DNA of 64,000 nt from Octopus vulgaris (Eukaryota): contig OX597836.1 in NCBI GenBank assembly GCA_951406725.2, positions 46,996,001 through 47,060,000 of the forward strand, written 5' to 3'. A program made the translations under genes and the position numbers. Under the pieces are notes generated by a model, which worked only from the letters and a program-made list of their open reading frames with translations, was not told where the DNA came from and searched no databases. Positions 4,553 to 47,428 of this stretch are shown here, piece after piece; within the stretch, counting starts at the first letter, position 1; each line of letters starts with the position of its first letter.

Positions 4553-4613
4553 GATAAGACTCCGAGTTTCGGATGTCGGGATGGGAATCCATGCCGCCAT
4601 CTCTTCAGTTATC
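4553..4613 (-). ncRNA. Type I hammerhead ribozyme (GUC site)
   Basis: Reverse complement: gataa-CUGAAGA-gatg..catc c-GAAA-ctcgga-GUC-ttatc; stems I, II and III all pair. Confidence 0.85.
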
Positions 4614-4641
4614 CGGCCATCAGTATTTTTTCCGATGGTCG

Positions 4642-4702
4642 GATAACTGAAGAGATGGCAGCGTGGATTTCCACCCCGACATCCGAAACTCGGAGTTTTA
4701 TC
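4642..4702 (+). ncRNA. Type I hammerhead ribozyme (GUU site)
   Basis: gataa-CTGAAGA-gatg..catc c-GAAA-ctcgga-GTT-ttatc. Confidence 0.8.
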
Positions 4703-11799: not shown

Positions 11800-12690
11800 T
11801 TAAAAACTGAACAGCTTAAGGATGCAACCTCTACAGACAGGTGAAGAAGAGGAGAAAATTTTAAATATGATGGAACCGTAAATAAAGAGAGGACCAGGAA
11901 TGAATACCTCAGAAGAGTAAAGAGAATATGGTCAGTAGGACTCTCAGCTTACAATAAGCATATTGCCCACAACACCTTTAAAGTACCTGTCCGCACCCTT
12001 ACGTTTGGCTTTCTCGAATAATCCCTACAAGAACTCAATGAGAGAGATGTTTGAACTCGAAGGCCCCTCAGGGTTACAGGGAGCTTCTTGGCTTTCTCGA
12101 ATAATCCCTACAAGAACTCAATGAGAGAGATGTTTGAATTCGAAAGCCCCTCAGGGTTACAGGGAGCTTCTTGGCTTTCTCGAATAATCCCTACAAGAAC
12201 TCAATGAGAGAGATGTTTGAATTCGAAAGCCCCTCAGGGTTACAGGGAGCTTCTTGGCTTTCTCGAATAATCCCTACAAGAACTCAATGAGAGAGATGTT
12301 TGAACTCGAAAGCCCCTCAGGGTTACAGGGAGCTTCTTGGCTTTCTCGAATAATCCCTACAAGAACTCAATGAGAGAGATGTTTGAACTCGAAAGCCCCT
12401 CAGGGTTACAGGGAGCTTCAACATCAAAAGCTATATTTCCCACGCAAGGACGGTGGCCGTGAGTTTAAATCTATATTGATGTCATATGAAGCACATATTG
12501 AGGCACTGAAGCAACCTCTGCAAAGAAATGAGGCCAGTAGCAAGTTTTTGCGACCACAAAAGCAATAACATGATTAAGATAGCTATTGGCGTTGAGGCAA
12601 GCTACGAAATAAGAGCTGCTACAGATCTCTCTCCAAGGAGTATTGGTAAATCCTTTTTATCAAGAGAACACAATAAGACAAACATTGAGA
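11800..12690 (+). mobile_element. Decayed R4/Dong-like non-LTR retrotransposon fragment
   Basis: Translates to EYLRRVKRIWSVGLSAYNKHIAHNTFKVPV..FGFLE..LYFPRKDGGREFKSI, resembling the post-RT region of R4/Dong elements. Confidence 0.75.
12005..12419 (+). repeat. Minisatellite, 5 x 83 bp
   Basis: Units start at 12005, 12088, 12171, 12254 and 12337; near-identical. Confidence 0.97.
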
Positions 12691-26489: not shown

Positions 26490-26941
26490 CTAAAATCATT
26501 GAACAAACAAATGCAAGGTCATCCGCATATCATTTCATAATTCGAACATTTAATTATAGAATAAACATATAACCCACAAGATGGAACAAAATTCATCTGT
26601 ATAGTACATAATAATAATAATATGGTGCGAGAAAAAGTCTTATCATTAAAAATTTAGATTTAATATTTTAGCGATTCAAAGAAAATACATTTATAAAAGG
26701 ACGTAGAAAGTAAAATATAATATAAGTAATATATAAAAAAAATATATAGGTATATAAAAATATAGGTATATAAAAATATATAAAACATATATATATATAT
26801 ATACATATAGGCGCATATAAAAAATATATAATATATATCATGTAAATAAAGTAAAATAAGGTTCATCGTTTAGACATTTTATTAAATAAATAATTCAGGT
26901 AAAATAAGCCTTATAGTTGAGAAGGAAATCATGTTTACTTA

Positions 26942-27018
26942 TCCCTATGGCCATTTCAGGGGTGTATTATGTTTAAAGCACTAGGGTGCATTCAGATAAT
27001 ACCTCCTTCGTCAGGGGA
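26942..27018 (-). ncRNA. Type I hammerhead (AUA site, long stem II) heading a TA-flanked cassette ~26490-27020
   Basis: RC: tccc-CUGACGA-agg..gtattat..ataatac..cct-GAAA-tggcc-AUA-ggga; palindromic stem III atggccat. Confidence 0.8.
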
Positions 27019-27039
27019 AAATATATATATATATATAAA

Positions 27040-29950
27040 CACAAAGATTGACATCTGTTTTATTATTACCCACTAGGAGCGAACATAGAGGGGACAATAC
27101 AATCTGATGTGGGGTCAGATACACGAATGGGATTACAAAAAGATGAATTTAAAAATTTACAAAAATTATAAAAATATGAAGAAATCGAATGAAGAACAGA
27201 CCGGAAGACATTACGGATGGAGTGGGAGCGGGTTTAGCTCGGACCCCACGAGCCCCGCCTCCCCACTGATACTTTGGTTTCGTCTGGTATTACATTTATG
27301 TGGTATCATCCACTCGCAACTTTCGTGCTCCATCCTTCCATCGTTCTTCATACACTCTCTTAGTCAGGCATTTTCTCTCTAGCCCTATCTTCCTTTTTAG
27401 GTGAAAGATGAAGTAATTCATCAATCCAGGGCCGGAGATGAACTTACCTGACCGTATACCATTCATCCTAGTCTTCCAAATCACCTCTTTCGCAATTGCT
27501 ACTACAACGAGAAAACAATTCTTACCTTCTTTCGCGAGGAAATCTAGTGGGTCAATTTTTATAATAGACTCAGTCGACAGCTGTACTCTTCGTGTGCTTG
27601 ACAACAGCTGTTCGGCATAAACCCACACCCCTGACACGACCGAACAATGAACAATAGCGTGCGGGACGGTTTCCCTATCCCGCTCGCATCTTGGACATAT
27701 CGGACTGCCCCGGCCACCGTGCCTTGCGAGTTTATCCCGAACAGGTAGAGCTCCTCTGTAACACTGCCATGCCAGAGACTTCTGGTAGTTGTCCAGGGTC
27801 TTCGGCCCGAATGTACGTTGGAACAGACTGGCCAGCTGGTTATCGTCGAGACCTAGGGCTTCCCCTAAGGTATCTTCACATTCCGCCTCTACCAACCCTC
27901 TATAGAAGAATGTGGTGGAACCTCCACCGCAGGCGTTGCCCGAGCGACGGAATAGCAGGAGAGCCTTGCGACACTCCGTGTACCATGTGCCCAGTTTCGA
28001 TCTACGATTCAGCCAGGTTTCCCGTCCGCCGAAACTAGTGAACTTGGGAAACATCAGTTTTGCTAGCGGAGACCACACCCGTTCACCATCCAGGTAGAGC
28101 CACAGATGTCTTAACTTCAGCGCATGTCTGCGCATCATCAGCCAAGGCATCCCTAGTCCACCCTTTAACGGTTGTTGACAGCAAGTAGAGCGTTTCACAA
28201 GTAGTTTCCCGCCCTTCCACAAGTAGAAGAGCTGTCTTTCCAACTTGATCAACCACGAATCAGGGCAAGGAACGACGGATAGGCGGTAGGTGATAACCGA
28301 TGCGATAAACACATTGGCTACCTCCGCCCTTCCTTTCAGGGATAGCTACCGCCAAGACCAGGTCTTGACCTGATATCATTAAGGAAACGACCTTGCTTCC
28401 AGCTTGATCCCAGGCCGCGCATATTTAAACAACCAACATAAATGTAATTCATGGCTTACCTTATATCAGTGGTTCGACTTCACTTTTTCCTTCACTTTTT
28501 TTTTCTTTTTCCTGGGCTCGTGGGGGAGTCTGACGCAGGCCCTCGTATATATATGGTGAAGATATGTCCATTCTCAGAGGGCCCACGTCATGATAAAATT
28601 CGGACTTCATCCGTCCGTACTCCTTCCGGCCTATTCTGTACAAAATAAAATCTTTTGTTTTTTTGATTTTCTCTACTTTTGCCATAGCTGCCAAAACGTT
28701 GGTTAGTCTATTATTAGAAGCCTTAATGGCCATAAATGAGTTCGTTGTTTCCTTTCTTTTTTTTGGCTCACTTTCAGAGGGGTGGTTTCTTTTTTTCGTT
28801 TTTTCTTTACGATTTTCTCCCACCCCTCCTCATTTTCTTTTTCCTCGCAGCTTGTTGTTGCTTCTGTTGTTGATTCTGTTGTATCTGCTGCCTCTTTTCT
28901 TTCTGCTGTTTTTCCTGAGTCGTCTGGTGTTGTCTCTGGTGAAGCTTCTTGCTTTTTCTTTTCTGCTTGAGCTGCTTCCTGCGGTTTAGGTTGGCACTCT
29001 GCCCTCACGTGCCCCTTTTTACCGCAGCCGAAGCACCTCGGCTTTCTGCCTTCTACGAAGACCATCACTCTCTCCTCCTCGCTGATCTTCAGCGTCTCTG
29101 GTATTTCCTCTAGGGTTTGTACCTCCGCCTGAATTGACATTGATATGCATTGGCCTTGCCAATGCTCCTCCTCCTCTACTGTAGCCTGGAGGATATTAAT
29201 CTTGTCTTCCAGGCCTAACATCACTGCCGCCACCAGGCATGTGGCGTCTGCTTCTGGGGGAATATTTTTTATTAATATTTTTGAGGTCCTTCTGCCTCTG
29301 TACAGGGGAAGAAGGACAATGTTCTCTGCTTTCAACGGTTCAGTTGATAGCTTCTTAGCTATCTCTTCCGTCCTGAACCTTACCTCTACTGTACCAAATT
29401 TTTTACCGCGATTTAAGTAGATGATATCTTGCCATACTGACTTCAAGCAGTTTTCTTTTTTTTTTTTTTCTTCTATTTTTTTGGATGGTTCTACTTGTGG
29501 TGTTGAACGTTTTATATATAATTCTTTGTTTTTCCACTTCCTCAATTTTTTTCCTGTCTGGTGTTCACTTCCGTTCCTTCTTTTTTAAACACTGCTGTGT
29601 ATTTTTCAAGGTTTTCTGTATCGATTTTCCTCTGTTTTTTCTCCGCAACTTCAGCGAACTTCTTTGCTGGGGCTTCTGCTGCTTTAGGTGGCACCGTCGG
29701 TGAACTTTCTTCACCTGACACAGGTGAATCGGAGCCAGAGGTGTCCATCTCCGAGTCTGGCTTTAACAAGCCTTTCAATTGAAAACAAGAAAAAAAGTTC
29801 TGGCCTCGTGTGTGTTTTCACAATAATGTATAACAATAATAATTCCCCCACGGAGGGGGGAACTCTAATACGTAGTCTTCGCGCGAAGGTTAATAACAAA
29901 ATTTGTACAAAAGACAAATTAACACAGCAGTAAACAACCGTAACAGTAAT
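27040..29950 (-). mobile_element. L1-clade (Tx1-like) retrotransposon, internally deleted
   Basis: ORF1 pieces 29778-28461 with a CCHC knuckle (CFGCGKKGHVRAEC); ORF2 start MNYIYVGCLNMRGL at 28452 fused to the post-RT C-terminus (KGGLGMP..CPRC..ETVPHAIVHC) ending at 27296; AATAAA then (TA)n at the 3' end; 5' boundary approximate. Confidence 0.9.
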
Positions 29951-30089: not shown

Positions 30090-30500
30090 AATTAAATCAA
30101 ATTAATTCCAATTAAATTAAATTGAATTAAATTGATTTAAAAAGAGCCTCCGTGGTTTCAAATCCTGCAAAACTTAAATACTTTTATTTCTCAATTTATT
30201 TAATTTCTATATACTCAAAAAGAATGGGTTTACTTAACTAAATTAAACTGAATTAAATTGAGTTAAAATTGAATTAAATTGAGCCTTCGAGGTTTCAAAT
30301 CCTGCAACAGCTAAACCAATTATTTTTTACAACTTATTTTTTTCCTAAGACTCAGAAGGAATGGGTGCATTAAATTAAATTAAATTAATTTCAATTAACT
30401 AAACTGAACTAAATTGAGTTACATTGAGCCTCCATGGTTTCCATCCTGCAAAAGCTAAATCCATTACTTACTACAATTTATTTTATTCCTGTAGATTTTC
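30090..30500. repeat. Three diverged ~140-bp tandem units in the PLE 3' region
   Basis: gagcct(c/t)c..ggtttc..atcctgcaa at ~30145, 30281 and 30426, separated by (AATTA)-like runs. Confidence 0.85.
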
Positions 30501-31935
30501 AGGAATGTAGAAGAACATTTATGTATGCAAAAGGGGATCACGTCCGTAAATTTATTCAGAATGTGCGGTCCCTAACACCTAAGGATGGTAAGTGATTCCC
30601 TTATGCATAGCCTACACTTGCTGATATTTCTCTTGAAGTTTGGGGTTTTAGAAATGATGGACCATTCTAGAAAATAATTCTTATTGTTCTTTCTCAAGTT
30701 GTGTATATGCGAAGCAAGTGTAGTTGAGTTATAGTATTTTTCGTTAGCAAAAGAGCTCATGTGTGATCTATATCGCGCCTTGAAATCCATCGTACTACCT
30801 GTATATAATTTGTTTAGCTTATCTACATCCCTGACTACACATTTATATATTACGTTGGTAACCAGACAGGAACCATCCAAAGGACATAATTTGGGTTTCC
30901 TACAGTTACATGTCTTTCCGGGGCCTTTCCTAATTTTTTTCCTATTGTTATCTTTATTTATTTTATATCCAGATCCAGACGGGTTTCCCTCATTCCTTCC
31001 CTCAAAACTACCCTTATTACATGGGTTCGATGAGTCCGGTAAAGGTAGACCGCTTGTAGCTTTGGTATTCGGCTTTACAGGATTATCAAACACATTTCCT
31101 TGGTCATCCTCAAAGGAACTTTTTTTGCCGTTCCACCTAGTAAGCTTGCTTCTATTGATTGAAGCAATGATGGAAGCAAAGTTAGGCATTACAGAATAGG
31201 AGAATTTTATCGTCGACTTGTTGGAGATGCTATAATATTTATGGTCCTTTGGGAAGTTCTCCTTCAGAATCTTAAAAAATAGTTTCGGTAAATTCCTTAC
31301 TCTAAGGGAGAAAGGGGGAGCGAACCAAATAACTTCCCTTATTCTAGGCCGTGAACTTCCTGTTTTGTTTAACTCCTTATCAAGATTTTTAATTTCCTTA
31401 TACCTACACCTACTGCGGTTATCCCTAAACATATTATTATTCCTAAGCATATTATTATTATTCAAAGGCCTCTTATTATTACAGTATTTATTATTGTATT
31501 TATCTGTAGTAATTGCAACTTGCTTAATTGGCAAACCAGCCATCTTGTTTTTGAGTCTAGTATTAAAGATATAGAATATTTTAGACTTGAAACCACTTAA
31601 ACTTAGGGCATTATCATACACCGGTGCATGCTGCTCAAAAATCTCTTCGTTCGCAGATAAATTGGATATTCTAGTTGAAATCGCAGTTATGATACTAGCT
31701 ATTGTGGATTTCGGATGATTAGATGACACATTGATATATGCTATCGATTTATTAGCCTTACGAAAGGGATAATATAGACCGGTATTAAGACACAAGGTAA
31801 CGTCCAAGAAATTTACCACCCTAGAGTTACTGTCGAAGATGATATCAAGATTTAAAAAATCCTTCAAAAAGCTTCTCAGCGACTTCTTTAATCTGTTTAA
31901 TTCGGTCTTAGAGAGGCCCCTGACAGGAAACAATT
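30478..31935 (-). mobile_element. 5'-truncated Penelope-like element (Naiad-type): RT thumb + GIY-YIG endonuclease
   Basis: VNFLDVT..YINVSSNHP..IWFAPPFS..CNCRKPKLCPLDGSC (CxCx5Cx5C)..NVIYKC..YTG..FKARY..CRLC..E; frame continues past a TAG at 30572 to LNK..CIH. Confidence 0.92.
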
Positions 31936-31949
31936 ATTGTATTATTAAT

Positions 31950-31988
<39 letters not shown>

Positions 31989-32018
31989 AGGCTTTCAAAT
32001 TATATTGCTTTTGGAACG

Positions 32019-32092
32019 ATCGTACTGATGAATCTACGGACGAAGAATTACGTAAGTAATTTATTCGATAATTGACGAAACCGGTATACGAT
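32019..32092 (+). ncRNA. Type I hammerhead (GUA site) in TA-flanked cassette 31985-32252
   Basis: atcgta-CTGATGA-..-GAAA-ccg-GTA-tacgat; 6-bp stem I, palindromic stem III accggt. Confidence 0.8.
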
Positions 32093-32250
32093 TAATTCTT
32101 GATTTTTATGTAATTTTCATCTGTCTTGCCCGCCTATGTTCTGGTGTTCGCTGAATTTTCTCTAGAGAACAATCTTTCTTTGTAGTTAGATCGTTTGTGA
32201 TCTTCTAGCATATGGTTATCCACCTAGTGGTTTTTAGCCCTAAAATATAC

Positions 32251-32300
<50 letters not shown>

Positions 32301-32302
<2 letters not shown>

Positions 32303-35300
32303 GGAGTAAACACATAAATGTGAAACAAGGTGGAAAAAAGAGTACTCAAATACCAGTGGTAGAGTAATATGCTTTATTTAAAGCAGCAGAAAATTCAACA
32401 AAATCTGTTACTCTGAGTTTCTCGTTGCCGTTCATCAGACAGTTTTTGCTAGAATGGAACCGATATATCAATTCAATCTAGACTCTTACAAACGCTACAC
32501 CTTTAAAAAGAAATGGACTTGTTTGATTGGCCCTTTAGAAAAAACAGTCAATCTTCGAGCGATAAACAAAAAGGTCAAAAATATATGTATATATATATAA
32601 AAACTTATAAAAATTATAAAATTCGAGGAAAAAACCTTACATTGAATAAAATACATATTGACATTAATGAAGAAAGTATAATTAAAGCTTAGAAATTAAA
32701 CCTATTATAAATATTACACTGCAATACATATTTATGTTAACGTGTACATATATATATCAACATACACAGAAGGATGCGTGCCAACGCCATACATATACAG
32801 ACGTATAAATATAAATCTGAAATATACACATAAATGCATGCGTACATATATTTACGCAATCCGTCTCGCACGCAATTTAAAATCATCTATGTAGCGATTC
32901 TCATATACTGAGTAAGGGAGGGGCGAAAGAAAGGAAGAGAGAGAAAAAGGAACGAAGAAGGGGGAAGGAAAAAAGAAAAAAGAAAAAGGAGGGGTGGGGA
33001 AAAAAACGAAATAAGAAAAAATATGTATACAAACTATGTAACGGCATTATTGACATGTATGGAGACATGTATACAAATACACAAGCTCGAAAGGATACAT
33101 ACACATACAGTCGTGTATATGTGTGCTTAAGCACAAACATACATCCACTTACACATACACAGATACGCATGCTTACAAATACATATCCATGGCTATACAC
33201 ATATATAAAAATTTTAATTTTTGACAACATTGCTTTTTTAAAGAAATGGGTGCAATAATAAAAAATATATACGAAAGATATATAAAAATAAAATATAACA
33301 CCCTATTTTGGATCATCTATAAAAAATCAAGGTAATCCTATACAATACAATAATTTGAAATAAACAAATTCGAAGGTTTTTCCTAATGTATATGTCGAAA
33401 CATAAGACTTTGCTATACGGATTAAAATCTGTATAACGCGGAACAAAATCCATCGTAGCGCTCACAGCTCAAGAGTCAAAATCAAAATTTCAAAAATCAA
33501 AAATACAAAATATATACTCTATCCATATGGTATATTTATATTCGACATTTTAAATTTAGCCGCGTGCCTACATAAATTCATTAGCTCACTTCTTTGATTC
33601 AAAGAATTATTGTCTTTGAATAAAATGTACATTTTTTCTAATAAGCAAAGTTTGCACTTGAAATTATTTTTGTATGCTCCATGCCTGTATAGTGCCGCCC
33701 TGTCCAGAATGCTCCATGTCACGTTGAAAGGTGGGGCTTCCTTTTCTTTTAGTTCCCAGACATATTTTGCTAGGCTGGTCCTCTTCCTATTCTCTGGGTA
33801 TTTAAATGAATTTTTATGAGAATAAAATCTTGTTTTAAATGAATTTCCTGAAGCCCCTGTGTATGTCTTGTATTCCGATGAGCCTTCTACTTGCACCTTG
33901 GCTCTATAAACTACTCCTTTCACTAGACATTTCCCTTCTAACGGACAGGAGCTTTCGTTTTTGAAATTGCATTTCTTAATGGGCTCGGCACCATGCCTAA
34001 TCTCAATTAGCTTCCTATTATGCTGGCTACTGTAAGAGGCGAAGTTTCTGCAACAAGAATAGCTAACCTTCAGGGTTCTTCTATTAAATATCCTATAGAA
34101 TTTATGACCCTGCTTAAAATGCTATGGGACTAATCTCAAAAATTCCTTACCTATATTAGTCCTTACGGCCAAATTGAAAGCCGGGTTGAACCACAAGACT
34201 TTCCTGGTCCTAGTTCTTCGTGCAGCATTATTATCAGCATTAAGCTGGTTGTACTGGATCTTCTCAGAGAATCCACTATTCTTTAATGCGCTATCGTAAT
34301 AAGGTGCAGCATTATGGAATGCTGCCTCGTCCGAAGAAATTGAAGATATTCTTCTACCTACATTGCTGACTAAGTTCCTAAGGATAACTGGTGGATGGTT
34401 CGAATCTTTGCTAATATACGATAGCTTTTCATTGGGCTTACGGAAAGGTTTAAATCTATCCGACCTTACATTAAAATTTACGTCTAAAAAATCTACACTA
34501 TTCAGGTTAGCATCTATCGTAACCCGTAAGCCCATCCTTTGAAAGAAAGCAATGAGGTCCTTCCTAAGTCTATCTGATTCATGGCCGTTTAGATTATGCG
34601 TGGCTATAAGGCCGTCATCCCTATATAAACCTGCATCTATAAATGGGAATTCTATTTTTAGATTATGGAGAATAAAGGCTCCTATGAGCATACATAACTC
34701 AGCCCCGTCGTATGCCCCCATCGGTACATCGAAAAGAGAATCCTCAGTCTTCTTAATCCAGGTGGAATCCTCGAAAAAAGAAGCGATTTCCTCGCATGCA
34801 TAATAATATCAATTTCCGAGCTATCGATGTTGACATACTGCTTGGCGAAGTCCAATGCCCTTAGGAGCAACGTCCTAGATATCGACGGGTAAAAGTCAAT
34901 AATGTCGAATTGTGTGAAACTACAATTATTCTGATAGCTAATACCTTTAAACCACTCTATGACCGACTTACTATTCTTCCAAATTCTCAAGTCTACTTCA
35001 CTATCTAACTTAACTAAAATACGGTCCAAAATATTTTTGCTAATAATTCCTATCTCAGTTTTAGCCGGATTTATCAATCTACATTTGGGGTTTCTACTAA
35101 AATTGGCTTTATGGTCTTTCAGAGTAATAAAAGCTGGTCGTGGTGAAAGATATTCAATCCTATCGCTAATCTTAAGATCGTTAGCTATTCCTCTTGCTTC
35201 TAAGTTCACCTCTTTGTATATATTCGTGTCGTCTTTTTTGTATGTGTCTGTGACACTATTCGAAATCAGGCGTTTATAAACGTCCTTATCAAGTGCATAT

Positions 35301-35402
35301 AAGTTCCTTGTCTTATCAGAATTAACGAAGATCTTATTCGAGTCGTTAATCTCCTTAATTTTTTCTCTCATATTCCTGGAATTTGATTTTCCTAATAAGC
35401 TC
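32301..35402 (-). mobile_element. Penelope-like element (Naiad-type), left arm of a 6-kb palindrome
   Basis: ORF pieces 35440-34682, 34721-34122, 33923-33519: SDKT, FDIIDFYPSI, PMGAYDGAE, GLYRDDGL, SNHPP, GVVY..YTG GIY-YIG, CKLC..E..CRH; ~1.2-kb 3' region with hammerhead and tail. Confidence 0.95.
32400..32446 (-). ncRNA. Minimal type I hammerhead in the PLE 3' end
   Basis: RC: aaaactgt-CUGAUGA-a cg(gcaa)cg a-GAAA-ctcaga-GUA-acagatttt. Confidence 0.8.
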
Positions 35403-38400
35403 GAGCTTATTAGGAAAATCAAATTCCGCAAATATACCAACCAATTACAGAGGAATATGAGAGAAAAAATTAAGGAGATTAACGACTCGAATAAGATCTT
35501 CGTTAATTCTGATAAGACAAGGAACTTATATGCACTTGATAAGGACGTTTATAAACGCCTGATTTCGAATAGTGTCACAGACACATACAAAAAAGACGAC
35601 ACGAATATATACAAAGAGGTGAACTTAGAAGCAAGAGGAATAGCTAACGATCTTAAGATTAGCGATAGGATTGAATATCTTTCACCACGACCAGCTTTTA
35701 TTACTCTGAAAGACCATAAAGCCAATTTTAGTAGAAACCCCAAATGTAGATTGATAAATCCGGCTAAAACTGAGATAGGAATTATTAGCAAAAATATTTT
35801 GGACCGTATTTTAGTTAAGTTAGATAGTGAAGTAGACTTGAGAATTTGGAAGAATAGTAAGTCGGTCATAGAGTGGTTTAAAGGTATTAGCTATAAGAAT
35901 AATTGTAGTTTCACACAATTCGACATTATTGACTTTTACCCGTCAATATCTAGGACGTTGCTCCTAAGGGCATTGGACTTCGCCAAGCAGTATGTCAACA
36001 TCGATAGCTCGGAAATTGATATTATTATGCATGCGAGGAAATCGCTTCTTTTTTCGAGGATTCCACCTGGATTAAGAAGACTGAGGATTCTCTTTTCGAT
36101 GTACCGATGGGGGCATACGACGGGGCTGAGTTATGTATGCTCATAGGAGCCTTTATTCTCCATAATCTAAAAATAGAATTCCCATTTATAGATGCAGGTT
36201 TATATAGGGATGACGGCCTTATAGCCACGCATAATCTAAACGGCCATGAATCAGATAGACTTAGGAAGGACCTCATTGCTTTCTTTCAAAGGATGGGCTT
36301 ACGGGTTACGATAGATGCTAACCTGAATAGTGTAGATTTTTTAGACGTAAATTTTAATGTAAGGTCGGATAGATTTAAACCTTTCCGTAAGCCCAATGAA
36401 AAGCTATCGTATATTAGCAAAGATTCGAACCATCCACCAGTTATCCTTAGGAACTTAGTCAGCAATGTAGGTAGAAGAATATCTTCAATTTCTTCGGACG
36501 AGGCAGCATTCCATAATGCTGCACCTTATTACGATAGCGCATTAAAGAATAGTGGATTCTCTGAGAAGATCCAGTACAACCAGCTTAATGCTGATAATAA
36601 TGCTGCACGAAGAACTAGGACCAGGAAAGTCTTGTGGTTCAACCCGGCTTTCAATTTGGCCGTAAGGACTAATATAGGTAAGGAATTTTTGAGATTAGTC
36701 CCTAAGCATTTTAAGCAGGGTCATAAATTCTATAGGATATTTAATAGAAGAACCCTGAAGGTTAGCTATTTTGTTGCAGAAACTTCGCCTCTTACAGTAG
36801 CCAGCATAATAGGAAGCTAATTGAGATTAGGCATGGTGCCGAGCCCATTAAGAAATGCAATTTCAAAAACAAAAGCTCCTGTCCGTTAGAAGGGAAATGT
36901 CTAGTGAAAGGAGTAGTTTATAGAGCCAAGGTGCAAGTAGAAGGCTCATCGGAATACAAGACATACACAGGGGCTTCAGAAAATTCATTTAAAACAAGAT
37001 TTTATTCTCATAAAAATTCATTTAAATACCCAGAGAATAGGAAGAGGACCAGCCTAGCAAAATATGTCTGGGAACTAAAAGAAAAGGAAGCCCCACCTTT
37101 CAACGTGACATGGAGCATTCTGGACAGGGCGGCACCATACAGGCATGGAGCATACAAAAATAATTTCAAGTGCAAACTTTGCTTATTAGAAAAAATGTAC
37201 ATTTTATTCAAAGACAATAATTCTTTGAATCAAAGAAGTGAGCTAATGAACTTATGTAGGCACGCGGCTAAATTTAAAATGTCGAATATAAATATACCAT
37301 ATGGATAGAGTATATATTTTGTATTTTTGATTTTTGAAATTTTGATTTTGACTCTTGAGCTGTGAGCGCTACGATGGATTTTGTTCCGCGTTATACAGAT
37401 TTTAATCCGTATAGCAAAGTCTTATGTTTCGACATATACATTAGGAAAAACCTTCGAATTTGTTTATTTCAAATTATTGTATTGTATAGGATTACCTTGA
37501 TTTTTTATAGATGATCCAAAATAGGGTGTTATATTTTATTTTTATATATCTTTCGTATATATTTTTTATTATTGCACCCATTTCTTTAAAAAAGCAATGT
37601 TGTCAAAAATTAAAATTTTTATATATGTGTATAGCCATGGATATGTATTTGTAAGCATGCGTATCTGTGTATGTGTAAGTGGATGTATGTTTGTGCTTAA
37701 GCACACATATACACGACTGTATGTGTATGTATCCATTTGAGCTTGTGTATTTGTATACATGTCTCCATACATGTCAATAATGCCGTTACATAGTTTGTAT
37801 ACATATTTTTTCTTATTTCGTTTTTTTCCCCACCCCTCCTTTTTCTTTTTCTTTTTTCCTTCCCCTTCTTCGTTCCTTTTTCTCTCTCTTCCTTTCTTTC
37901 GCCCCTCCCTTACTCAGTATATGAGAATCGCTACATAGATGATTTTAAATTGCGTGCGAGACGGATTGCGTAAATATATGTACGCATGCATTTATGTGTA
38001 TATTTCAGATTTATATTTATACGTCTGTATATGTATGGCGTTGGCACGCATCCTTCTGTGTATGTTGATATATATATGTACACGTTAACATAAATATGTA
38101 TTGCAGTGTAATATTTATAATAGGTTTAATTTCTAAGCTTTAATTATACTTTCTTCATTAATGTCAATATGTATTTTATTCAATGTAAGGTTTTTTTCCT
38201 CGAATTTTATAATTTTTATAAGTTTTTATATATATATACATATATTTTTGACCTTTTTGTTTATCGCTCGAAGATTGACCGTTTTTTCTAAAGGGCCAAT
38301 CAAACAAGTCCATTTCTTTTTAAAGGTGTAGCGTTTGTAAGAGTCTAGATTGAATTGATATATCGGTTCCATTCTAGCAAAAACTGTCTGATGAACGGCA

Positions 38401-38453
38401 ACGAGAAACTCAGAGTAACAGATTTTGTTGAATTTTCTGCTGCTTTAAATAAA

Positions 38454-38454
<1 letters not shown>
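35403..38454 (+). mobile_element. Penelope-like element (Naiad-type), right arm of a 6-kb palindrome
   Basis: ORF pieces 35457-36146, 36107-36820, 36904-37308; near-identical reverse complement of the left arm; ends in (TA)n. Confidence 0.95.
38380..38426 (+). ncRNA. Minimal type I hammerhead in the PLE 3' end
   Basis: aaaactgt-CTGATGA-acggcaacga-GAAA-ctcaga-GTA-acagatttt. Confidence 0.8.
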
Positions 38455-38505
<51 letters not shown>

Positions 38506-38507
<2 letters not shown>

Positions 38508-39079
38508 TAGCAGTGTAGTCCGGCGTTGTTCGGGTTTGTTTTTTAGTTGCGCTTCGTTCATTCGTTCTGTCTTATGCTAATGCAATTAGTTTTTCTCATA
38601 GAAAATCGATTGAAATCGCTGAATTGTACTCAACGATGTAGCAGTTGACGACCTTGAAAATTAGTGCATTGATGCAGCGAACATTATTCCTCTGCATTGG
38701 ATCAGCTGATCCGTCGTTCGCTCAAAACCAATGACATCACAAAAATAATTTTTTCGACCCTTTACAATTAGAATTTTTGAAAAGTAAAAATTTTGCATTA
38801 TGTAGCTTGTTATTCTCTTTAAGTGAACATTTCTGGTTGAAATACACCGAAAAATGGCGACACAGCAGTCAAAAAATCGTAAAAATGAGGATTTTGATAG
38901 AAAAAAAGCACCTTTTTAATGTAAATGATTTTTGGTCTTAACATGGTCCGATTTGATTTTTTTCTTCTACGGAATAAAGATCAAGCCTTCTTCTATCATA
39001 CTCTCAACTTGCGCCACATCGTCTCGGATGAGTTAGTTGAAGGCTACCAAACCCGCCACACACACACAGACGACTTCAG

Positions 39080-39128: not shown

Positions 39129-39269
39129 TATGAAGTAAAAGTAGCTCTAGCGTAATAAATATTATTAAATACATTCACTAATGTATATGCTTTTTGTATT
39201 TTCCGCTGCTTACATAACCATATAAGTCGTGGGCTGGCTAGGTAAGTCGCCCTCCACTTATTAGAGTGC

Positions 39270-39315
39270 GTGATGCTGACAAGCCATAAAAAGGCGAAAC
39301 ATTGATGTCCTTCAC
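39270..39315 (+). ncRNA. Decayed type I hammerhead (G8A, GUC site)
   Basis: gtgatg-CTGACAA-gcc(ataaaaa)ggc-GAAA-cattgat-GTC-cttcac; the core differs from CUGACGA by one CpG-type transition. Confidence 0.7.
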
Positions 39316-40199
39316 TCCGAAATGGGATTTGAGAGTGAGTTATCTCACCTGTCCATGACTAAGATTTTAACACCGGATGAGAAAGAACTGAGTTAATGAT
39401 AGTTAAGTCATCCATTTTTCCAGCGGATTTAAAAACTTTGGGCCAGACTTGAAGAATGAGTCGAGTTTCTTTTTTTTCTTTTGGCTTTGCTGATGTTGTT
39501 ACAACACCACTAGTTCACTTAATTTAATACGTGAAGTCTATTTAGATGACTGGAACTTTATTGTAGCGACTGAACAAGATTGGAACTTTGAACACAAAAG
39601 CCTGAAAAATACTGCATGATATTTAGTCAAATGCTCTAACTACTTTTCTAGTTCACCACACTTGAAGTTCTGCGCTAATTCGAACTATCTGCGCTCTTGA
39701 TTGAATATTCTTCTATGAAAGTCAAAATAAGAGGAAGTCGTCTGCTCTCCGATTTCTCATTACCAACGGCTACAAAGAACAGCTATGCAGATCAGCATCC
39801 TACAAATAGGCAGCTAGTAACACATATTTCGTTTTCCTTGCATGGGTTTAACCAACTTCAATAAGTTTCATGAACATTGAAAACATGAATGAATTCACAC
39901 TTTACGCTCACAACTCTATTTTCAGCCTTAGCAGCTATTACAGTTTACAAATCACTGCATTTTATAGTTTGCCAGCCATTTTGCAGCTTTATTACTTTAA
40001 ACCGACATCATTTTGCTTCTATTGTTACACATTCTTCTTCGTTCGTTGCAACAAGAAAAACTGAACTACGAAAGAAACGTTCGTTCAGCTGGTGCCACAC
40101 GAAACGCATGATTAACTGAATAAATCAGCTAGCTTTCTGAAAGGATTTCATTCAAAGGCAACGAAATTATCTGCTTTAAACTGTGACATTCAAAAGGAC

Positions 40200-47016: not shown

Positions 47017-47400
47017 TCTATATATATAAACGGCAGTTTGTCTGTGCGTGTTTCTGTGTGTCTGTTTGCTTGTACCCTCACCCTGACCACGGCTTCCAAC
47101 CGATTCTGATGAAACTTGACACACACATAGCCCAATGTCATAATTCAAAACTAACGCAGCCAAAATTTTGAAAAGTTTCCCCAGTTCTGAAAAAAATCGA
47201 TAAATTCGTCATGGGGTCGAGAATCAGAAACACGAACCACAAACTGTCTAGGGGACGCAACTCCATCCTTTTTTAACTCTCAAAAAAAATTTACCATCAT
47301 TTTTTTTCCATTTTTTTGCTATTTTTTGGCTATAACTCTCTAAAAATGCTTTATAGTTATTTCCCTTACAAACCTGAGCAACGCCGGGCGATACTGCTAG
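47017..47400 (+). mobile_element. Non-autonomous Helitron-like element; a more decayed relative at ~44683-45110
   Basis: 5' TC-tatatata, gtctgt repeats, 3' cctgagcaacgccggg hairpin + CTAG|t. Confidence 0.7.

Positions 47401-47428
<28 letters not shown>

Follow-up and report, generated by a model that had tools for sequence, protein, structure and literature searches.

The locus described here lies in a stretch of 64,000 nucleotides (nt) of the Octopus vulgaris genome (NCBI GenBank assembly GCA_951406725.2, contig OX597836.1, positions 46,996,001 to 47,060,000, forward strand), called the window below; all coordinates refer to it. Between 32301 and 38454, two long copies of one Penelope-like element (PLE) stand head to head. 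The two arms were compared by aligning the reverse-complemented left arm to the right arm, which gave 3,028 aligned columns. The alignment confirmed two features proposed in a sequence-only reading of the DNA: a perfect palindrome of 25+25 bp at 35378-35427, with its axis at 35402/35403, and the absence from the left arm of 23 nt (35428-35450) that are present on the right. The apex palindrome is not a chance occurrence, since the next-longest palindrome without a spacer in the window has arms of 10 bp (AT microsatellites excluded). The earlier estimate of two arms of about 3.05 kb holds for the right arm (3,052 nt) but not for the left (3,102 nt). Mirror symmetry ends at 32372/38454, and a 71-nt tail at 32301-32371, overlooked before, belongs to the left arm only. 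Both ends of the element abut (TA)n, and the claim that the palindrome ends inside (TA)n on both sides was borne out. Past the (TA)n the flanks show no similarity to one another and no mirroring.

Besides the 23-nt gap, the arms differ by 11 substitutions and four one-nt indels, a divergence of 0.36%, that is 0.18% per arm. The differences seen earlier by eye were real, and each of those named (Q/K, G/E, L/P and TAG/AAG) was present, but the count of about a dozen with one 1-nt indel has to be replaced by the figures given here. Seven of the 11 substitutions are transitions and three of the four indels are changes in homopolymer length. Two differences are clustered multi-base changes, one an AT/TA swap at 36703-36704 / 34124-34125 and the other a pair of changes inside 4 nt at 37735-37738 / 33089-33092, and the 11 substitutions may therefore represent 9 events.

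Each arm carries one open reading frame (ORF), interrupted by frameshifts and cut at the axis on its 5' side, in support of the previous call of a 5'-truncated Penelope element. Criteria for PLE clades were taken from Craig et al. 2021 (PMC8557442), and motif counts were based on 88 full-length-like proteins among 120 relatives listed. The ORF is collinear with intact one-ORF relatives of about 710 aa, with identities of 60%, 60% and 53% to relative P0003 (713 aa) over three ORF pieces, and lacks about 81 N-terminal codons (median over the 88 relatives). Frameshifts in the right-arm ORF lie near 36048 (both arms) and near 36771 (right only). The order of motifs is DKT, YRDD, cysteine linker, VY..YTG, CKLC..E and CRH; on both arms the linker and the GIY-YIG-type motifs VY..YTG come after YRDD. 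The element reads SDKTRN at the DKT site, a motif found in 80/88 relatives, and the CKLC..E and CRH motifs correspond to a CxxC..E..N..CxH pattern in 84/88. The RWK region would fall within the truncated part (RW[KR] in 79/88 relatives, strict RWK in 60/88). The linker is CNFKN(E/K)SSC on both arms, i.e. CNFx5C, and CxCx5C is found in 81/88 relatives. The corresponding T>G change was tallied in none of three sequencing runs (described below) and once, unplaced, in a fourth, so this one-residue departure in an otherwise aligned linker looks family-wide.

On its motifs and its likeness to published Hydra proteins, the element is assigned to the Hydra clade and not, as had been proposed, to the Naiads. 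Hydra-clade elements are described as having a C-terminal endonuclease without CCHH, together with DKT, RWK, CxCx5C, CxxC/CxH, hammerheads and (TA)n targets, and Naiads as having an N-terminal endonuclease, DKA, CCHH and no canonical hammerhead (PMC8557442). None of the four Naiad traits was found here: the endonuclease motifs are C-terminal, the triplet is DKT, CCHH is missing, the VY-YTG interval being free of cysteine, and a hammerhead is present. A (TA)n target, inverted copies and a tail are shared with Naiads. The motif strings from the alignment of relatives also matched Hydra entries in the supplement of PMC8557442, within the first two places per search term. From Hydra-1_Obim the element appears to be a different family, because the hammerheads differ (by eye).

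The hammerhead core with stems I and III fits the Hydra-2_Amil layout, following the description of Cervera and de la Pena 2014 (PMC4209133), and stem II has only 2 bp. The call is a consensus motif call, since plain folding of the two hammerhead regions was not better than that of shuffled sequences (z -0.73 and 0.32). Rfam gave no hammerhead on the arms, only sub-threshold microRNA models, and one weak match outside them (Hammerhead_HH9, 39258-39329, plus strand, 20.3 bits, E 0.4, far under the cut-off). Pfam named no domain on the three ORF pieces and no reverse transcriptase (RT) or GIY-YIG family on 20 aligned proteins, and a PDB sequence search returned 0 hits. The features of the locus are collected in Table 1.

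Table 1. Features of the head-to-head Hydra-clade insertion and its target, in window coordinates.
Feature	Position	Strand	Basis
Left (TA)n, presumed target half	32245..32300	.	sequence
71-nt tail, left arm only	32301..32371	-	arm alignment; PMC8557442, PMC11167929
Left arm: 5'-truncated Hydra-clade PLE copy (by motifs), shared frameshift, TAG stop at 34122-34124, 23-nt gap at 35377/35378	32372..35402	-	
Left-arm type I hammerhead motif, the same sequence as on the right arm	32405..32442	-	
Perfect 50-bp apex palindrome; TCGA at 35401-35404 apparently native, common to both arms	35378..35427	.	family contigs match from 35401
23 nt on right arm only, loop of an imperfect 9-bp stem (35419-35427 / 35452-35460, 8/9 paired)	35428..35450	+	
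Right-arm ORF without about 81 N-terminal codons; DKT, YRDD, linker CNFx5C, C-terminal VY..YTG, CxxC, CxH	35403..37308	+	
1.15-kb 3' untranslated/pseudo-long terminal repeat (pLTR) region, right arm, to short terminus	37309..38454	+	
Right-arm type I hammerhead motif: stem I of 4 bp, stem II of 2 bp in this copy, palindromic stem III with 1-nt loop	38384..38421	+	
Right (TA)25, presumed target half	38455..38504	.	

Part of the stretch was found in 20 of 24 public sequencing runs listed, and four of these, all in the form of contigs, were aligned to 35378-38454. Between 76 and 100% of each of the four was read; contigs lose rare variants, and the runs may come from other individuals. All 30 bins of 35378-38454 were covered in each run. 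One contig, whose match begins at 35401, had a depth of 1,792, compared to 14-22 for rare joints in the same run, which points to roughly a hundred family copies that reach 35401. Family contigs match from 35401 onwards and depart there by a loose end in two of the four runs; in a third, a contig starts at 35401. The loose end continues the ORF as ELEAFEKDL-F-ELIRK, resembling by eye the same stretch of Hydra-1_Obim. On the evidence of these contigs and of the continued ORF, the axis sits on a native TCGA common to both arms. Other inverted junctions exist in the family, as three strand-switching joints were listed elsewhere (36064/37549, 37091/38016 and 38298/38348).

The same contigs indicate that both arms come from one source. 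An extra base at 36048-36049 is carried by the family contigs in 4/4 runs and is absent from both arms, so the frameshift shared by the arms is derived. Twenty-six sites at which most depth fell on another letter were picked among the 40 listed of 76 rows, and at 25 of them the non-family letter is identical on both arms; at 36871 it is found on the right arm only. A common source is read from the shared frameshift together with these 25 shared letters. Changes that arose on one arm were seen on either side: 36771, 36871 and 38191 on the right, and on the left the TAG stop and a P-to-L change at a proline kept in P0003. RNA editing and GC-biased conversion were considered as origins of the shared variants and rejected: 12 of the 17 shared transitions are AT-to-GC, which does not depart from 0.5 (p=0.14) or from the AT share of the arm (p=0.80).

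The structure is, with high confidence, a real and single insertion of a Hydra-clade PLE into (TA)n in head-to-head arrangement. It derives from a single non-autonomous source and is inactive today. For the route by which it formed, priming from both target ends is given about an even chance. The endonuclease would cut both strands of (TA)n, as can be supposed from another PLE studied in vitro. Both 3' ends would then prime reverse transcription at start sites 71 nt apart, which could account for the tail seen on one arm. Both antisense cDNAs would halt at 35401, where the arms have their common end, possibly because the RNA was broken or structured there. The identical 3' ends might anneal over the native TCGA and copy each other, giving in one act the palindrome without spacer and the second strand. 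One arm would lose the 23-nt loop of a local stem, either in the course of insertion or later, and the arms would subsequently drift apart by 0.36%. No host function is required by this mechanism.

Several published properties of PLEs fit this route. A Poseidon-clade PLE protein was found to cut and extend both target strands (Frangieh et al. 2024, PMC11167929), and to start at two RNA sites, the interval between them being the tail; the same source models the protein as a dimer; a one-sided tail is described for PLEs in PMC8557442 as well as in PMC11167929. Among 80 metagenome loci of relatives, searched with a loose hammerhead-core pattern and comprising mixed families, 17 matches in 15 loci fell upstream of (TA)n, eight of them at a distance of 65-84 nt and nine at 108-153 nt. 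The corresponding distances for the two arms in the window are 67 and 138 nt, so its two ends would fit two end classes found in relatives. The exact hammerhead pattern gave 0 matches in the metagenome search, and no relative was found in viral contigs. The common end of the arms also requires explanation. Two independent, uniformly distributed truncations were computed to fall within 4 nt of one another in 0.24% of cases, so a single template or a single strong stop must be involved, and the shared variants agree with this.

A number of observations weigh against priming from both ends, or at least weaken the case for it. Centres of 4-bp palindromes occupy 248/3,048 arm positions (8%), and TCGA at the axis is therefore a modest signal. 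No target-site duplication is readable in (TA)n. The variants shared by the arms could also result from gene conversion between them, and the in vitro results, obtained with a Poseidon and not a Hydra element, apply here by analogy. In four head-to-head metagenome loci the arms end far apart and not at one base. Finally, neither a crossing of the apex nor a skip of the 23 nt was present among the joints and indels listed for the contigs of the four runs, with five indel rows and 876 loose ends outside that listing, a result that by itself neither supports nor refutes the structure.

The locus had been explained before as a snap-back product of reverse transcription. A single retrotransposition event, as implied by that explanation, is indeed the most likely origin, and palindromes at inverted PLE junctions have been read as the result of self-priming (Arkhipova et al. 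2013, PMC3846280). In the form considered here, one tailed cDNA primed at the left (TA)n would fold near 35401 and copy itself, the hairpin would be resolved 71 nt short of its start by endonuclease or repair, and the loop and the 23 nt would be lost later. The single template directly gives identical truncation points and shared variants, and a second native TCGA 15 nt upstream of the axis, with a weak stem between the two (by eye), could prime the fold-back. However, such a fold-back should leave a spacer and the second TCGA, whereas the apex has neither, and an extra deletion of the stabilising spacer is then needed. By eye, the native sequence 5' of the axis is also without a zero-loop stem. 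With the tailed left arm as first strand, a second, later event is required for the 23 nt that the right arm alone carries; with the right arm as first strand, the tail cannot come from it. Snap-back is on balance considered the chief rival, possible but doubtful. A rearrangement after insertion would likewise account for the shared frameshift: a single copy could have broken at 35401 and been duplicated in inverted orientation by fold-back repair or sister fusion, with gene conversion keeping the arms alike. In repair-deficient yeast, inverted repeats 5-9 bp in length are able to cause palindromic duplication (PMC7999016). The duplication would nevertheless have to halt where the short end of the element meets (TA)n, without entering the flank, and the arrangement is already the usual form of a PLE insertion, which makes this origin very improbable.

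The palindrome could also have been made by the assembler, if a fold-back long read joined two near-identical copies, one tailed and one not, or two haplotypes. A long-read assembly is suggested by the absence of N and the presence of kilobase microsatellite arrays in the window. Fold-back reads are reported at about 0.55-0.6% of genomic reads from Oxford Nanopore Technologies (ONT) sequencing (PMC12870357) and assemblers are said to struggle with PLE structures (PMC8557442); the absence of the apex from the contig joints listed and the homopolymer nature of three of the four arm indels point the same way. Against an artefact stand the unmirrored flanks, the mirror being confined to the element and stopping at two different and plausible element ends, and the 11 substitutions, seven of them transitions, some derived on one arm and some on the other. 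An artefact would also need two loci that share a rare haplotype. Two adapter motifs were absent from 35201-35600, and if the assembly was built from HiFi reads, these are described as nearly free of fold-backs (PMC12870357). An artefact was accordingly judged unlikely.

The 23-nt gap takes out the loop of the stem formed by 35419-35427 and 35452-35460 and leaves one base of it. Simulated arm deletions of 10-40 nt did likewise in 0.23% of cases, a figure obtained for a stem that was noticed first and tested after. The stem is weak, with -2.7 and -1.4 kcal/mol as DNA. The gap looks structure-guided and may have arisen during or after insertion. At 35453, a letter of the 8-pair stem beside the gap, both arms have G, compared to A in all depth of the four runs. 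A classical central deletion was not favoured as the origin of the gap, since the gap spares the centre: the 50-bp palindrome is untouched and the long arms are placed 73 nt apart. The stabilising apex deletion proposed earlier is accordingly unproven, and the gap could date from the insertion itself. Some stabilising effect is plausible by analogy: in eukaryotic cells, forks no longer stalled at inverted Alus that were separated by a 52-bp spacer (PMC7999016). Provided that conversion, RT errors and assembly errors contribute little, the divergence of 0.18% per arm would correspond to about 0.5 million years when set on the Octopus scale of PMC13282606.

It had also been suggested that a transcript of the palindrome could be a source of endogenous small interfering RNAs (siRNAs). 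Judged by analogy with Drosophila Penelope, this idea is not new: in transformed D. melanogaster, Penelope siRNAs match inverted regions and silence poorly, according to the review PMC3681739. As in the rearranged Penelope copies of that species, long inverted repeats lie within the element; theirs have siRNAs mapped to them and belong to a different clade and host. A segment at 31985-32244 (plus strand), between two (TA)n arrays, contains at 32025 the degenerate core of a type I hammerhead, oriented towards the palindrome. It is probably the 3' end of another PLE and, if it holds a pLTR promoter, could transcribe the palindrome.

Taken together, priming from both ends leads to a wider reading of the locus as an integration footprint, which is put forward tentatively. 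Two RTs, primed from two target ends at two known start sites, would have transcribed a single RNA as far as an identical final base, after which the two cDNAs would have cross-primed over a 4-bp self-complementary end, a step undescribed for PLEs; the resulting palindrome with 3-kb arms would have persisted to 0.36% divergence, and the neighbouring hammerhead segment might drive a 3-kb hairpin RNA. If true, this would give the head-to-head structure, the one-sided tail and second-strand synthesis in a single step and with no antisense template.

The surroundings are rich in other elements. A second, more divergent Hydra-type PLE fragment lies at 30500-31953 (minus strand) and is 37-45% identical to the relatives of the first element. 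It has an intact CNCx5C linker, an Asn-rich insertion and a sub-threshold GIY-YIG Pfam hit (E 0.0039); its 5' end is cut by (TA)n and its 3' end runs into a 137-bp tandem repeat (30115-30495). A short repeat at the start of the right flank (38479-38539) recurs at 47368-47428 with 90% identity over 61 nt, partly TA, and abuts (TA)n at both places; the insertion site therefore looks like a cluster of TA-targeting elements. Further out, a non-LTR retrotransposon remnant occupies 26500-29700 (minus strand), with a zf-RVT domain (E 2.6e-9) at 27296-28345 and, at 28703-29584, a gag-like ORF that includes a zinc knuckle. Two similar hammerhead-like cores on opposite strands at 4567-4688 (4608-4567 minus, 4647-4688 plus), 38 nt apart, may represent another PLE, or a retrozyme-like element, inserted as a small head-to-head pair. 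Five 83-bp tandem copies, 99% identical, were found at 12005-12419.

Inverted repeats of at least 30 bp were found in 12 of the 80 metagenome loci, and six of the 12 were examined. Four of these (L013, L042, L066 and L074) have part of their own ORF inverted on the 5' side, and their arms end far apart. One (L018) has an inverted piece near the hammerhead end, and one (L071) is a tail-to-tail pair, 64% identical. The remaining six loci gave self-overlapping inverted matches, mostly 73-83% identical. In L066 the head-to-head junction at position 187 falls on the 4-bp palindrome AGCT, with arm ends about 780 nt apart. The rarity of symmetric junctions among these loci says little, since contigs from short reads would break at such junctions.

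A literature search, with most subscription papers outside its reach, found no report of a palindrome of the Hydra clade with zero spacer and the whole ORF. The value of the locus is modest and lies in mechanism, the route to inverted copies and to second-strand synthesis in PLEs being still open (PMC8557442, PMC11167929). Constraints exact to the base are provided: arm ends on a native 4-bp palindrome, a single source and 3' ends that differ between the arms. As the family numbers about a hundred copies or more in a genome, counts of junction types can separate dual priming from snap-back. The locus also adds to the Hydra clade a family with a long tail and an altered linker.

Compared with the Hydra clade (Hydra-1_Obim, Hydra-2_Amil and Penelope-13_HM), the element has the same C-terminal GIY-YIG-type motifs without CCHH, DKT, CxxC/CxH around E and N, a type I hammerhead near the 3' end and a (TA)n target. 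It differs in its linker, CNFx5C in place of CxCx5C, in the ending of both arms at one base and in its length, the unit being more than 3.3 kb with a 1.15-kb 3' region, whereas Hydra elements are described as 'generally <3 kb' (PMC8557442). An inverted 5'-truncated copy beside the 5' end and a one-sided tail are given as typical of PLEs in the same source, and both are found here, with a tail of 71 nt instead of 30-40 nt; Penelope-13_HM, itself of the Hydra clade, bears at its 5' end an inverted, 5'-truncated copy of 966 nt (PMC8557442). Junction palindromes are called abundant in Adineta (PMC3846280). Pen2a_Av and Pen3a_Av of Adineta vaga share the head-to-head inverted copy, the junction palindrome (18-38 bp in theirs), the shorter inverted arm and the tail on one end. 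What is inverted in theirs is a pLTR about 200 bp long, with a readable target-site duplication, whereas the octopus arms span 3 kb with most of the ORF (PMC3846280). The structure is thus mostly ordinary and of a known kind, slightly unusual only in how exactly symmetrical its join is.

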